From Escherichia phage vB_EcoM-720R4: a stretch of 35,056 bases of DNA. Below the pieces are notes generated by a model that worked only from the letters and a program-made list of their open reading frames with translations, had not been told where the DNA came from and did no database searches. The stretch lies in the sequence record ON470603.1; one strand, 5' to 3'. Shown piece after piece: positions 28,154-32,418 of the stretch. Every line of letters begins with the position of its first letter. The first letter of the stretch is position 1. The position numbers were made by a program, and so were the translations under genes.

Positions 28154-28501
28154 GACCGACCTCTATTTCCCTGAATTTACGACGAAACTGTTCGAGCGGA
28201 CTGAAGCACTCATGCTCATAGCCTTCGCGGAGGTAGATAACCCGTTGTGTTTCCGGTTCCCAACGAATGACTCTGACGGGCACTCCGTAGTGATCTTTGA
28301 ACCAGCGGTTAACTTGTCGCAAAGGACTGTCTCCTTCTGCCGGTTGAAATCCCCCACAGCCCACTCTGCAAAGCTGTGGGTTACAATTTCCCTGTCACCT
28401 GGTACATTCACTGCATAGCAATACTCCACCTTCGCTTTTCCACCCGGTACAGGAAGCGCAATCAGTTGCGAGCGACGGTAGTGTGTTGTTAAACTGTTCA
28501 T
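28143..28501 (-). pseudogene. small early gene apparently split by a frameshift at a G5 run (two overlapping ORFs, 28163-28501 and 28143-28364)
   Basis: The N-terminal half of one frame and the C-terminal half of the other both look protein-like; the frames switch at the C5/G5 run at 28351-28355. Confidence 0.35.
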
Positions 28502-29082
28502 GCGTTAGTTTCTCCACAACCAGAAGCAATCGACGCCACGACGCCCGGAGCTGCACACTCGCGGGCGTTACTCTTTTCCGGCGCACAAAAAACACGAAAT
28601 AACAGTGTTAAATGCTCCTGCCACTTCGCCATTACTTGGTAGCTGTTCTCTTCGATTTGCTCACGCTCAGCTTGGTCAATAACTCCATCAGCAGTTGCCT
28701 TGCGTAAGTACTGGGAATGCTTGCCAATCCATTCTATTGACTCCATCAGCCGCTGATTAATGTCACCATTGTCAATGTCATCAATGACCACCAGCGGCAC
28801 AAACACCCCATTACTACGACGGGCTATTGCATCTGTTACATGCCTGGTACCACTGGCATCCTGTAAAACCATGGCCCACTCAAGTGGAAAAATTTGATCC
28901 CCACCGCTACGCAGTCTGTTATGCAATTGATCTTTTGCTGGGGTGATATCATCAGATTTATACAAACCAAGAATTTCTGCTGCTTCCTCATAGCCATGAG
29001 GTAAATCAGCAATCGTTCTTCGTATTGCTGCCACCAGCCATGCTGGTTGTTTATCAACTTTCCATTCAGGTTCTTTACCCAC
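28498..29082 (-). CDS. YdaT-like / phage CII-like regulatory protein
   Basis: 194-aa ORF immediately downstream of the Cro-like gene; assignment mainly by position and loose resemblance. Confidence 0.5.
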
Positions 29083-29109: not shown

Positions 29110-29307
29110 TTATGCCGCAGCACTGTTAGTCTTTTGATATAAAGACACGTCAACTTTCAGTTTCCCGTTAGTAATTTTTTCTAACTGGTACGCTCGGCCT
29201 TCAGGAATAATCTCAGGCCACTCTGAAACAGACGGATGCTTAATACCTAGGGCTTCGGCGGTTTTACAAACTCCGCCGAAATAATTAATCACGTCGGATT
29301 TCCGCAT
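29110..29307 (-). CDS. Cro-like repressor (YdaS/Cro family HTH)
   Basis: 65-aa ORF divergent from the CI-like gene; HTH-like segment GGVCKTAEALGIKHPSVSEW; RBS GGGAGA. Confidence 0.7.
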   Translation of the reverse strand: MRKSDVINYFGGVCKTAEALGIKHPSVSEWPEIIPEGRAYQLEKITNGKLKVDVSLYQKTNSAAA

Positions 29308-29402
29308 TTCTGTCTCCCGTTAAATTACGTTAAGCAGAAATGTAGGATATCCAACATACCAATGTCAAGAATCCTACATGGGCATGTGGTAGGATTGCCT
29401 AC
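29308..29402. promoter_or_regulatory. right operator/promoter region: PR-like promoter for cro (minus strand: TTGACA 29368-29363, TACATT 29344-29339), 17-bp operator TGTAGGATATCCAACAT (29341-29357) plus additional TGTAGGAT-type half-sites
   Basis: Divergent cI/cro intergenic region; near-palindromic operator with GGATATCC core; promoter hexamers read directly. Confidence 0.6.
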
Positions 29403-30056
29403 ATGATGAACATGAGTGATCGTATTCGCCAAAGGCGAAAAGAACTGAACCTGACACAACAAGCACTGGCTGATTTGACTGGTGTGAACCGTGTCACGGT
29501 TACTGGATGGGAAAAGGACGACTACCAACCAAATGGAGCCAACCTTCAAGCCCTAGCCAACGCACTTAAATGCGATCCTCTGTGGCTTGTTAGCGGAAAA
29601 GGCTCGCCTGAACCAAAGATAAATCTAAAACCTGAAATATTCGCAGTTAAAAAAGTCCCCCTCATCTCGTGGGTTCAGGCGGGTTCATGGACAATGACGG
29701 AGCCTGGTGTCAGGAAAGAAGATGCTGAAGAGTGGGTTTATACTACCGCCCTTGTATCAGAAATGGCATTTGCACTACGGGTCCGTGGTGATTCAATGAC
29801 CAATCCCCTCGGCTCACCATCGATACCAGAAGGTTCTATCGTTATCGTAGAGCCAGATATTATTGATACAGAGTGTATTAACGGAAAAATCGTTGTTGCC
29901 CATATCAATGGTGGGCAAGAAGCGACACTCAAAAAATTTGTTGAGGACTGGCCGAACAGGTATCTCGTCCCACTAAATCCTAACTATAAAACTATTGAAT
30001 GCGGTGAGAACTGCAGAATAGTTGGTCTTGTCAAACAAGTAATAATGGATTTTTGA
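29403..30056 (+). CDS. CI-like repressor (N-terminal HTH, C-terminal S24 LexA-like peptidase domain)
   Basis: 217-aa ORF with HTH (LTQQALADLTGVNRVTVTGWE) and a C-terminal domain with Ser ... Lys catalytic residues (GDSM ... TLKKF); RBS AGGA 7 nt upstream. Confidence 0.9.
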   Translation: MMNMSDRIRQRRKELNLTQQALADLTGVNRVTVTGWEKDDYQPNGANLQALANALKCDPLWLVSGKGSPEPKINLKPEIFAVKKVPLISWVQAGSWTMTEPGVRKEDAEEWVYTTALVSEMAFALRVRGDSMTNPLGSPSIPEGSIVIVEPDIIDTECINGKIVVAHINGGQEATLKKFVEDWPNRYLVPLNPNYKTIECGENCRIVGLVKQVIMDF

Positions 30057-30080
30057 CACATCTTCCTCACTATCGCAAAA

Positions 30081-30102
30081 CCGGGGTATCCCCGGTTTTT
30101 TT
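30081..30102 (+). terminator. rho-independent terminator after cI
   Basis: CCGGGG-TAT-CCCCGG stem followed by TTTTTTT, 25 nt after the cI stop. Confidence 0.7.
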
Positions 30103-30119
30103 ATGAGCCTATCTTTTTA

Positions 30120-30172
30120 TGTAGGATAACCAACATAAACTCTTGACACTCACATGTTGGATATCCTACATT
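30120..30172 (+). promoter_or_regulatory. left operator/promoter region: PL-like promoter (TTGACA 30143-30148, TACATT 30167-30172) flanked by two 17-bp operators (30120-30136 variant; 30154-30170 identical to the OR operator, inverted)
   Basis: The exact 17-mer of the right operator recurs here as its reverse complement; same -35/-10 hexamers and spacing as the PR-like promoter. Confidence 0.55.
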
Positions 30173-30289
30173 TGTTTTTAGAGTTGTGGTGAATGCGCAG
30201 GCTGATGCGCGAAAGACATTGCAGCTATTGCGGAAAAGAGCTGTTCGGCGGGGCCATTAAACGCCCGTATCTGGAGGTTAAAGAACAAA

Positions 30290-30565
30290 ATGAAAGTCCA
30301 GATTTTAAACAATAGTGGTGAAGTCGTTTGGTCATACGACATAGCCGCTCCTGTAGATCAGAGCGGCGATAGCTGGACCAATGGGAAACATCAGATTATG
30401 GCTGGAGTTGTATTCTCTTTACGCCGTGCTTTGGAACAGGCTGAAGTATTTCCATCAGACCCTGAATGGAAATGGCCTTTTTCTATTTGTCCAAATTCGG
30501 AGAGCACATTTCAGAAAATTGGTCAGAAAGTCGCACTCGAAGAGCATCAGCCAACTGTTTCCTGA
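30290..30565 (+). CDS. hypothetical protein, first ORF of the leftward (PL-like) operon
   Basis: 91-aa ORF with GGAGG RBS; acidic, not N-like; its 3' end overlaps a convergent minus-strand ORF. Confidence 0.35.
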   Translation: MKVQILNNSGEVVWSYDIAAPVDQSGDSWTNGKHQIMAGVVFSLRRALEQAEVFPSDPEWKWPFSICPNSESTFQKIGQKVALEEHQPTVS

Positions 30566-30728
30566 TTTTTTCAGGTAACTCGTCGGCATCGCAGAAACAA
30601 CAACGCTCGATCATGTTGAAAGCCGATTCGTAGAACTGTTTCTGCTGAGTGTCGCTGAGACAGGAAAAGAGCGACGTTACGATGATTTTATTAATTGCAT
30701 TATCAAGTTCTTTTTCATCAAAAGTCAT
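30483..30728 (-). CDS. hypothetical protein encoded antisense to the PL-like operon
   Basis: 81-aa ORF with strong RBS (AAAGGAAAA, 6 nt spacer); opposite orientation to all neighbouring early-left genes. Confidence 0.4.
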   Translation of the reverse strand: MTFDEKELDNAINKIIVTSLFSCLSDTQQKQFYESAFNMIERCCFCDADELPEKIRKQLADALRVRLSDQFSEMCSPNLDK

Positions 30729-31165
30729 TTGATTTTCCTTTTATGTATACGGGCTTAAAAGGATACCACCGAGCCTGAAGTGGTGAAAAGACAGGCACAT
30801 AACAGCTAAGTATTTTCAACCAGAGAGAATCCTTAGCGTTGTGGTGAATGCGGCTCAGCGCACGCGGGTTAAGGTTGAGGCTGACAGTCGACCTTCTGTG
30901 GATACCCACCCGCCTGGTGTGCAACCTTCGCCAGGCACCGGGAGGCACCCGGCACCACAACTTTATGCTGTGTGTAGTCCTCGCGGTACCAGTTTGTACA
31001 CTTGCTTCCGGCTGGTACCGCTCTTTTTACAAAACAGAGAAGAGCATCACCGGACGACGGGCTCATAACCCAATCCATCCGGGCGGCTGCCACCGCAGGT
31101 GTTCTTCTCTGTTTTGTGGAGAAACCAACCGACCTTGCAGGGTCGATATGATGAGGAGCAGCAAA

Positions 31166-31528
31166 ATGGCTAGCGAACGCAGTACTGATGTGCAGGCATT
31201 TATCGGGGAGCTGGACGGCGGCGTATTTGAAACCAAAATCGGCGCAGTTCTCAGTGAAGTCGCTTCCGGTGTGATGAACACGAAAACCAAAGGGAAGGTC
31301 TCACTCAACCTGGAAATCGAACCATTTGATGAGAACCGTGTGAAAATCAAACACAAACTCTCATATGTTCGCCCGACTAACCGCGGGAAAATTTCCGAAG
31401 AAGACACCACCGAAACGCCGATGTATGTCAATCGCGGTGGTCGCCTGACTATTCTGCAGGAAGACCAGGGACAATTACTGACTCTTGCCGGTGAACCTGA
31501 CGGAAAACTCCGCGCAGCAGGTCATTAA
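31166..31528 (+). CDS. hypothetical conserved phage protein
   Basis: Start set at ATG 31166 preceded by GAGGAG; the track ORF 30848-31528 extends upstream through a structured non-coding region and is probably not translated there. Confidence 0.5.
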   Translation: MASERSTDVQAFIGELDGGVFETKIGAVLSEVASGVMNTKTKGKVSLNLEIEPFDENRVKIKHKLSYVRPTNRGKISEEDTTETPMYVNRGGRLTILQEDQGQLLTLAGEPDGKLRAAGH

Positions 31529-31593: not shown

Positions 31594-32418
31594 ATGTCTC
31601 AGAACTTAGACTCAACCGCAATTAATCAAATCCATGCCCTTATTTCTGCTCAGGGTGTTAATGAAATTATCAGTAAGATTGGTGCCGATGCTGTGGCATT
31701 GCCTGAGAATTTCCGCATTCATGATCTGGAAAAATTTAATTTAAATCGCTTCCGTTTCCGTGGCGCGCTTTCCACTGCCAGCATCGATGATTTTACCCGT
31801 TATTCTAAAGATCTTGCAGATGAAGGCACCCGCTGCTTTATCGATGCTGATAATATGCGTGCCGTTAGTGTGCTTAACCTGGGTACTATTGATGAACCAG
31901 GTCACGCAGATAACACCGCCACTCTCAAACTGAAAAAGACAGCACCGTTCTCTGCTCTGTTGTCTGTTAACGGCGAGCGTAACTCCCAGAAGTCACTGGC
32001 AGAATGGATTGAAGACTGGGCCGACTACCTTGTGGGCTTTGATGCGAATGGTGACGCCATTCAGGCAACAAAAGCGGCTGCGGCAGTCCGTAAAATCACG
32101 ATTGAAGCAAACCAGACCGCTGATTTTGAAGATAATGACTTCAGCGGCAAACGCTCCCTGATGGAGTCTGTCGAAGCGAAGACCAAAGACATTATGCCAG
32201 TGGCATTTGAATTTAAATGCGTTCCGTTTGAAGGCCTTAAAGAACGTCCGTTTAAATTACGCCTCAGCATTATCACTGGCGATCGTCCTGTACTGGTTCT
32301 GCGCATTATTCAGCTGGAAGCGGTGCAGGAAGAAATGGCTAACGAATTTCGTGATCTGCTTGTTGAGAAATTTAAAGACAGCAAAGTAGAAACCTTTATT
32401 GGTACTTTCACCGCCTGA
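31594..32418 (+). CDS. YfdQ-like protein (DUF2303)
   Basis: 274-aa ORF; gene order with the following HD-domain gene matches the yfdQ-yfdR-yfdS-yfdT arrangement of the E. coli CPS-53 prophage as I recall it. Confidence 0.65.

Follow-up and report, generated by a model that had tools for sequence, protein, structure and literature searches.

Two small convergent genes with overlapping coding sequences (CDSs) lie next to the early promoter PL in a stretch of 35,056 nucleotides from Escherichia phage vB_EcoM-720R4 (ON470603.1), hereafter the window. The plus gene (30290–30565, plus strand; 91 amino acids, aa) is the first open reading frame (ORF) of the PL transcript, the minus gene (30483–30728, minus strand; 81 aa) is antisense to that transcript, and the two share 83 bp at their 3′ ends (30483–30565). 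Together they form a rigid unit of 439 nt in which both ORFs are coding. The unit is inherited as a whole, is accessory, lies directly after a repressor-controlled PL, and carries an upstream module that it shares with other loci. We interpret the pair as a single accessory, moron-like cassette that is organised as an excludon and switched between lysogeny and lysis, and we put the probability of this interpretation at roughly 60%.

Both overlapping ORFs are conserved genes

An earlier interpretation of this DNA, made from the letters alone (the sequence-only reading), had proposed two convergent ORFs with an 83-bp overlap, and an ORF check matched its coordinates, strands, lengths, and overlap exactly. 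The ribosome-binding sites it had assigned were also found, namely the plus-gene Shine-Dalgarno (SD) sequence GGAGG (30273–30277, plus strand), 12 nt before the ATG, and the minus-gene SD AAAAGGAAAA, the reverse complement of 30733–30742, 4 nt before the ATG. In other lineages the plus-gene SD is GAGG, located 6 nt before the ATG.

Diverged copies were gathered by protein searches and contig look-ups, and eight lineages were compared (the window, L004, L006, L008, L011, L098, L104, and L107), which share 50–68% protein identity and ~68% DNA identity with the window. Both ORFs are open in all eight lineages, and the two ATGs are in each case exactly 439 nt apart, with zero indels. In the plus-only part of the cassette (positions 0–192), the mean pairwise ratio of nonsynonymous to synonymous differences (pN/pS) is 0.34 in the plus frame, which has no stop codon, while four other frames give 0.90–1.55, the mirror antisense frame gives 0.49, and all five contain 15–37 stops. 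The minus-only part (positions 276–439) behaves in the same manner, with a pN/pS of 0.32 and no stops in the minus frame, 0.86–1.47 in four other frames, 0.42 in the mirror frame, and 12–52 stops in all of these. The low values of the mirror frames are expected because a mirror frame shares its third codon positions with the frame under selection. The best-conserved DNA of the cassette is the doubly coding core (block 231–252, mean identity 0.78), which encodes ...VALEE in the plus protein and ...F/L-x-E-M/L in the minus protein. Across lineages, the CDS overlap measures 74–83 nt where the plus ORF has 91–93 aa and 110–176 nt where a tail extends it to 107–122 aa.

Since both ORFs are open in eight diverged lineages, keep the 439-nt spacing without an indel, and are under frame-specific purifying selection, they are, on these comparative grounds, conserved protein-coding genes. 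The fallback of the sequence-only reading, that one ORF is spurious, is refuted by this conservation and selection. Loss of the minus ORF in relatives that keep the plus gene, which would have spoken against the pair, was not seen either. The minus ORF is intact at 81 aa in all 80 IMG/VR loci retrieved with the plus protein, and the seven diverged lineages hold both genes. Conversely, among the matches listed, a window-type plus ORF accompanies the window-type minus gene in 50 of 50 loci anchored on the upstream element described below. The scoring of GC content at third codon positions (GC3), which had been proposed as a check, set neither ORF apart from neighbouring genes.

Public annotation records the two genes separately, with only the plus ORF in SfV (orf33) and in PGAP (WP_001514782.1), two entries that are the same protein as the plus protein of the window, and only the minus ORF in phage SKA5, the one phage in which the minus gene is annotated. 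In L006, L008, L011, L104, and L107, gene callers choose a 122-aa plus ORF extending through the minus gene and consequently leave the latter out, which constitutes a systematic blind spot for the minus family. Several entries of either gene are frameshifted or internally deleted (L007 1607–1831, P0013, P0020, P0035, P0046, and P0050). The L007 example has a 54-nt deletion in the minus gene, and such entries are decaying prophage copies or assembly errors.

Position after PL and accessory status

The window represents the immunity region of an SfV/SKA5-type lambdoid prophage. PL (30143–30172, plus strand), called by a promoter scan with a 10/12 match, consists of TTGACA (30143–30148), an 18-nt spacer, and TACATT (30167–30172), and is directed rightward in this window. 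A palindromic operator of 16–19 bp that is present in two copies between cI and cro (29340–29358 and 29389–29404) recurs near PL, just upstream of it at 30119–30137 and over the spacer and −10 hexamer at 30154–30172. The OL/PL region (30119–30172, plus strand) thus comprises two operator copies and the promoter. The operator copies identify PL as a genuine repressor-controlled early promoter, and the PL-like promoter of the sequence-only reading is thereby borne out. Its placement of the minus gene against the early transcript also holds, with the gene lying in an accessory slot behind a conserved upstream module of its own.

The cassette (at least 80% of 30270–30800) was found in 404 of 5426 complete E. 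coli genomes and its right-hand flank (30800–31170) in 1823 of them. It is absent from mEp460, SfIV, PhiR49, and several Stx2c phages, which share the PL leader and/or the right flank. As the flanks are shared without the cassette, the pair is accessory. In at least six different immunity regions, the plus gene is the next gene after that of the repressor. The L098 pair, complete and with its 439-nt geometry, is located just upstream of holin genes, where the plus gene is again oriented with the surrounding operon and the minus gene against it.

A conserved module upstream of the minus gene

In the diverged lineages, sequence conservation is far higher in a shared block before the minus ATG than in the coding DNA. 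The conserved module spans 30733–30796, and on the minus strand the block reads GCCTGTCTTTTCACCACTTCAGGCTCGGTGGTATCCTT (30759–30796). Within it, an expression element (30760–30796, minus strand; GCCTGTC-TTTTCACC-16 nt-TATCCT) contains a putative −35-like TTCACC at 30782–30787 and a putative −10-like TATCCT at 30760–30765. Across the different cargo genes found behind this element, the arrangement is TTCACC-16 nt-TA[T/C][C/G/T][C/T]T, in which the first T, the A, and the last T of the second hexamer are invariant and the other positions vary, and, judged from the sequences, this pattern is the one expected of a sigma-70 −10 hexamer. Diverged forms in L098, L104, L097, and L101 keep TT(A)ACC-15/16-TAnnCT. 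The spacer holds an inverted repeat, ACCAC/GTGGT (30765–30769 / 30780–30784), with compensatory variants ACCGC/GCGGT in L006, ACCACA/TGTGGT in L098, and ACCACGC/GCGTGGT in L104.

The minus-gene leader (30733–30763, minus strand) includes the SD and a hairpin in which UCCUUUU (30757–30763) pairs with AAAAGGA (30736–30742), and hence with the SD itself. In per-sequence folds, a leader hairpin running from inside the putative −10 to the SD occupies the same place in 18 of 20 homologous or analogous leaders, with differing stems (UCCUUUU/AAAAGGA, UCUUGG/CCAAGA, UGCUGG/CCAGCA, UCCUCU/AGAGGA, and CCUUGC/GCAAGG). RNAalifold on a MAFFT alignment of 12 leaders returned no pairs and did not recover this hairpin, and the single-sequence fold of the region upstream of the minus gene was no better than shuffles. 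The comparison of G-U with A-C pairs for the strand that forms the hairpin was evenly split, with one case for either strand (t147 and t94). A LexA box, an alternative sigma-factor promoter, an intrinsic terminator, and an integron attC-like site were each considered for the element and rejected by inspection, as they misfit the sequence or its single-copy arrangement. Taken as predicted signals, the module can be regarded with solid support as supplying the expression signals of its cargo at a fixed distance.

A slot for interchangeable cargo

The 32-nt core of the element (30765–30796) is also present in Klebsiella and Salmonella phages and in E. coli K-12. Used as an anchor against IMG/VR, it retrieved at least 120 loci, of which 113 were analysable, and the cargo families were split by blastp at 1e-5. 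Among the matches listed, a minus-sense cargo ORF starts 34–41 nt from the element in 112 of the 113 analysable loci. The element stands in near-identical form before at least 13 mutually unrelated cargo families, the window type and 12 others. Among the same matches, the window type is the commonest cargo (50 loci), accompanied by YmfI-like cargo (16 loci), a 63-aa SfII type (14), a 104-aa type (14), and several orphans. BssS-family cargo (Pfam E 2e-16) and YdiH-family cargo (E 1.5e-9) occur among the L125 and L183 loci; both families have chromosomal E. coli members of poorly known function, and a third alternative cargo shows a weak likeness to the Lar restriction-alleviation protein (E 0.008). 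A PADLOC scan of 10 of the 12 sister families, all but the 104-aa and 66-aa types, returned no match. At nearly all cargo types, a convergent sense-strand ORF overlaps the 3′ end of the cargo, and where this is plausible the overlap is 4–83 nt. Selection was computed for the window-type partner and protein has been detected for YmfJ; all other partners are mechanical ORF calls.

Two further occupants of the slot illustrate its exchangeability. SfII carries a third pair of 68 aa and 63 aa with a 39-bp overlap, and this pair is adjoined by a 14-codon remnant of a window-type plus gene (L111 1503–1550; MKVQILNNNCEVVW, followed by a stop), which demonstrates that a cassette was replaced through recombination within the plus gene. 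In the e14 prophage of E. coli K-12, the repressor gene (ymfK), a terminator, PL, the leader, and ymfJ (plus) converging on ymfI (minus) with a 63-bp overlap follow one another as in the window, and e14 likewise has the conserved element upstream of its antisense gene and an STnc100-like RNA downstream. The gene products differ, however, with 102/113 aa for ymfJ/ymfI versus 91/81 aa in the window, and YmfI forms a cargo family of its own (NCBIfam YmfI_phage). Homology of the pair to YmfJ/YmfI was rejected, as BLASTP gave nothing or an E of 5.8 and hhalign a probability of 0.1–0.2%. The excludome of MG1655 includes ymfI-ymfJ among its convergent excludons (PMC12288877). It is reported that ymfJ RNA rises by ~4.8 log2 units late in the SOS response and that the YmfJ protein is detected, with ymfI little changed (PMC11002266).

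The two proteins

The plus protein belongs to phrog_3195 (E 8e-64 over residues 1–91) and the minus protein to phrog_3311 (E 1.2e-55 over residues 1–81), both of unknown function in PHROG. The plus protein is acidic (isoelectric point, pI, 4.95) and Trp-rich, and consists of a conserved core (residues 1–85) and a variable tail, for a total of 91–122 aa. In six lineages the ORF extends to 107–122 aa, and the extension has a pN/pS of 1.47; the extension is unconstrained, and the functional plus protein therefore ends near residue 85 (...VALEE). The minus protein is acidic (pI 4.6), hydrophilic (grand average of hydropathicity, GRAVY, −0.40), and soluble, and is modelled as a three-helix bundle (H5–22, H26–46, and H53–75) with a predicted local distance difference test score (pLDDT) of 84. 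Its RCC[FY]C motif is kept in close relatives only.

Neither protein matched Pfam or NCBIfam, and profile searches against PDB sequences returned noise only for both. PADLOC 2.0 gave no hit for the plus protein and a noise-level SspC hit only for the minus protein (E 0.035, 10 bits). No relative turned up when the minus-protein alignment was run against one genome of each species. An exhaustive phmmer search with the minus protein found 19 proteins and widened the family to 35–41% identity, all members being unannotated, and a profile search with the plus alignment reached Enterobacteriaceae prophages only, at 50% identity or more. No paper on these protein families or accessions was found in a literature search. 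In the homology and structure check advised by the sequence-only reading, the minus protein received a confident model and the AlphaFold2 model of the plus protein, built from five sequences, is unreliable; neither protein gained a match to a family of known function. The exclusion or abortive-infection function which that reading had suggested is unsupported by the family, defence, and PDB searches and by sister cargos such as BssS and YdiH.

Two specific assignments were rejected. The pair does not fit a type II toxin-antitoxin system, as the genes are convergent rather than co-directional and match no toxin or antitoxin family in Pfam, NCBIfam, or PADLOC. For the SieB family, no match was found in Pfam, PHROG, NCBIfam, or PADLOC, and the minus protein is hydrophilic and modelled as a soluble bundle.

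Surroundings of the cassette

The nearest phage records for 30060–31170 are SKA5 (99.2% over 96%) and SfV (98.3%). To the left of the cassette lie a CII-like gene (28498–29082, minus strand), a cro of the P22-Cro type (29110–29307, minus strand), and a cI encoding a helix-turn-helix domain and an S24 peptidase (29403–30056, plus strand). To its right are a YfdP-family gene (31166–31528) and a DUF2303/YfdQ gene (31594–32418). Just after cI, a perfect 10-bp inverted repeat, AAAACCGGGG-TAT-CCCCGGTTTT (30077–30099), has T runs on either strand and is likely a bidirectional terminator, which would stop cI transcripts and provide the first candidate stop for minus-gene transcripts.

The PL leader (30183–30268, plus strand) is ~99% identical to that of phage mEp460, and the left cassette junction lies at ~30269. 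The leader opens with GTTGTGGTGAATGCG, and the same 15-mer occurs again at 30838–30853, 655 nt downstream, at the start of an STnc100-like RNA. In mEp460, the same leader runs on to the closing stem CACCACAAC and the same terminator. Because of this continuation and the shared 15-mer, the PL leader resembles the 5′ half of a second, mEp460-type STnc100-like RNA cut by the cassette. The single-sequence fold of the leader was no better than shuffles. A 69-nt leader segment (30200–30268) matches phage P1 and P1-like plasmid prophages (RCS47 and JL22) at 98.6%, near the plp lipoprotein gene. A 40-aa leader ORF (30193–30315, plus strand) bears a CSYCGK motif and may be a remnant or a chance occurrence. 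In E. coli JNE131328, a gene for a 73-aa 'ClpX C4-type zinc finger protein' lies between PL and the plus gene (L094 2291–2512).

The STnc100-family structured RNA (30808–31030, plus strand; Rfam RF02076, 49.1 bits against a gathering threshold of 47, E 7e-09) is closed by GUUGUGGUG/CACCACAAC and placed between the cassette and yfdP. It ends in an intrinsic terminator (30983–31028; fold z = −2.75) with a stem at 30983–30992 / 31012–31021 followed by TCTTTTT, which is the first predicted terminator for PL transcripts that have passed the cassette. The placement of this RNA between PL and the terminator is like that of the put-type antiterminator RNA of HK022. STnc100 was treated as a prophage small RNA related to PasD in a 2026 preprint. 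In e14, the CDS annotated as 'ymfH' (L095 2579–2890) overlies the STnc100-like RNA and its terminator. The equivalent ORFs of the window (30841–31068 and 30848–31528) look like by-products of the RNA, and ymfH may be a mis-annotation.

Proposed switch and alternative explanations

In the proposed excludon, PL would be repressed in the lysogen and the minus gene would be expressed there, transcribed from its module with the sigma-70-like TTCACC-16-TATCCT, the leader hairpin, and the strong SD, to give the small acidic three-helix protein. Upon induction or infection, the plus protein would be made first from PL. No intrinsic terminator is predicted within 30290–30728 on either strand, and PL transcription, starting near 30179, would therefore cross the minus gene and run to 30983–31028. 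This transcription would silence the minus gene by polymerase collision and by full-length antisense pairing. Minus-strand transcripts meet no predicted terminator before 30077–30099 and would therefore cover the plus gene and PL. For ymfI-ymfJ of MG1655, an excludon of this kind has been reported. The invariant geometry, the co-inheritance, and the joint relocation of the pair hint at one process in which both proteins take part, for instance as a lysogen-state effector and a lytic-state antagonist.

Several observations weigh against this reading. The physical overlap could by itself account for co-inheritance without any functional coupling, and family and PDB searches relate neither protein to a known activity, with a pLDDT of only 44 for the plus model. 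TTCACC-16-TATCCT matches the consensus at 8/12 positions and fell below the threshold of the promoter scan, which did not call it, and nothing upstream of the element is conserved across cargo types. The covarying leader hairpin begins within the putative −10, and, if it forms in the mRNA, transcription therefore starts further upstream. Moreover, distant homologues of the minus protein (38–41% identity; P0060, P0062, and P0059) are found on their own, with no plus gene beside them. For P0060 and P0062 the location is a Q-to-holin moron region, in which they run against the late operon, and the contigs of P0059 are too short to place. The solo genes at L097 3001–3219 and L103 2265–2519, both in Q-to-holin moron regions, and at L101 1009–1236 have a diverged upstream element, with a lytic-sense terminator just beyond it.

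Among the alternatives, the one we take most seriously, although it appears clearly less probable than the switched cassette, makes the pair an effector-antidote module, in which the minus gene encodes an anti-phage or toxic effector of the lysogen and the plus protein, made from PL, neutralises it for growth of the resident phage. This alternative would give the switched cassette a more specific function and agrees with the idea put forward in the sequence-only reading. Strict co-inheritance and joint relocation would suit such a module, as would a variable hotspot with many alternative two-gene cassettes, similar to prophage defence hotspots, and a position like that of P22/lambda sieB-esc-sas and of Rac sieB-ydaF, itself a listed convergent excludon. 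However, PADLOC recognised neither the pair nor the 10 scanned sister families, sister cargos such as BssS and YdiH are not known defence proteins, the minus protein lacks a membrane segment and an enzymatic motif, and its solo homologues have no antidote. We consider it slightly less probable again that the two are unrelated accessory genes whose overlap reflects compaction and the difficulty of recombining within it, the minus gene being constitutive rather than switched by PL. The solo homologues in Q-holin regions, the unconstrained C-terminal tail of the plus protein (91–122 aa), and the range of overlaps at other cassettes (4–83 nt) agree with this explanation. It fits poorly with the absence of any indel over 439 nt in eight lineages at ~68% DNA identity, with the joint relocation to a late region in which the orientation to the operon was kept, and with convergent sense partners at nearly all 13 cargo types, and the recombination inside the SfII plus gene indicates that the two genes can be separated.

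The remaining two explanations are improbable. One would make the plus gene indispensable for early regulation, as an N- or Nun-like first occupant of PL, and the minus gene its modulator, an idea that draws on the plus gene standing first after PL in at least six immunity types and on the strong terminator downstream. Nevertheless, close relatives with the same PL, leader, STnc100 RNA, and yfdP genes do without the cassette, the slot is filled by unrelated genes in e14 and SfII, the acidic plus protein (pI 4.95) lacks an arginine-rich motif, and the L098 pair lies far from any immunity region. The other, which we rank lowest, is that one ORF is a non-coding by-product of the opposite strand. 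Each public annotation does call a single ORF, and antisense frames of real genes are often open, as the 122-aa plus extensions exemplify. Yet outside the overlap each ORF has a frame-specific synonymous excess and no stops in eight lineages, each has a conserved start codon and SD and a separate PHROG, and the minus fold reaches a pLDDT of 84.

A broader and rather speculative proposal, to which we assign a low probability, extends the switched cassette to the whole slot. The stretch from the PL leader to the element would be an unrecognised hotspot of SfV/e14-type prophages for interchangeable lysogeny-versus-lysis cassettes, each combining an antisense anti-phage or host-modulating lysogen effector on the shared, portable promoter/leader module with an antidote partner made first from PL, and switched by collision and antisense pairing. 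The window pair would be its commonest occupant and ymfI/ymfJ its K-12 member.

Comparison with known systems

Ranade and Poteete are said to have described in 1993 that sieB is expressed in the lysogen from a position antisense inside the PL operon, and that sas derives from the PL transcript. SieB is a larger membrane protein, and its antidote Esc is made in frame from within the sieB gene. The window differs from sieB-esc-sas of P22 and lambda in having two separate small soluble proteins on opposite strands, without homology to that system. In P22, sas is an antisense RNA that switches sieB translation (PMC12197685), and by analogy sieB/sas may serve as a precedent for PL-derived antisense control of a lysogen gene. 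The pair shares with excludons the convergent neighbours on opposite strands, the overlapping 3′ regions, and the potential for mutually exclusive expression; it differs from them in that the CDSs themselves overlap, by 83 bp, and one partner is under a phage repressor.

Like morons and the occupants of prophage hotspots, the cassette is absent from close relatives, lies between conserved segments, has predicted upstream signals of its own, and forms part of a variable content at a fixed site. Unlike morons, the cargo of this slot is antisense to its host operon, shares one near-identical promoter/leader module, and mostly has a convergent sense partner. A terminator of its own, a further moron trait, was not predicted downstream of the minus gene before the cI hairpin at 30077–30099. 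HK022 Nun, which has an exclusion function and is encoded by the first gene after PL, in the same direction, is rich in arginine and acts on lambda nut RNA. The plus gene resembles it in holding the first coding position after PL in a lambdoid phage without an obvious N gene, whereas its protein is acidic and accessory; Nun was set apart by description and general family searches.

Significance

Both proteins were already present in databases as hypothetical entries, and convergent antisense genes in PL operons (sieB), excludons, and morons are established concepts. What appears to be new is the selection on both overlapping ORFs and the fixed 439-nt architecture. The use of one promoter/leader module before at least 13 unrelated antisense cargo genes at a PL-proximal slot, usually with convergent partners and including ymfI/ymfJ, likewise appears not to have been described. 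About 7% of complete E. coli genomes carry the pair, yet each annotation pipeline records one gene only. With the conserved module as a simple anchor, at least 13 alternative cassettes can be located by sequence beside the prophage immunity switch, in a slot where lysogen-expressed functions such as exclusion and host modulation are to be expected. Since ymfI/ymfJ is present in E. coli K-12, the proposed switch and the functions of the small proteins are open to standard genetics.

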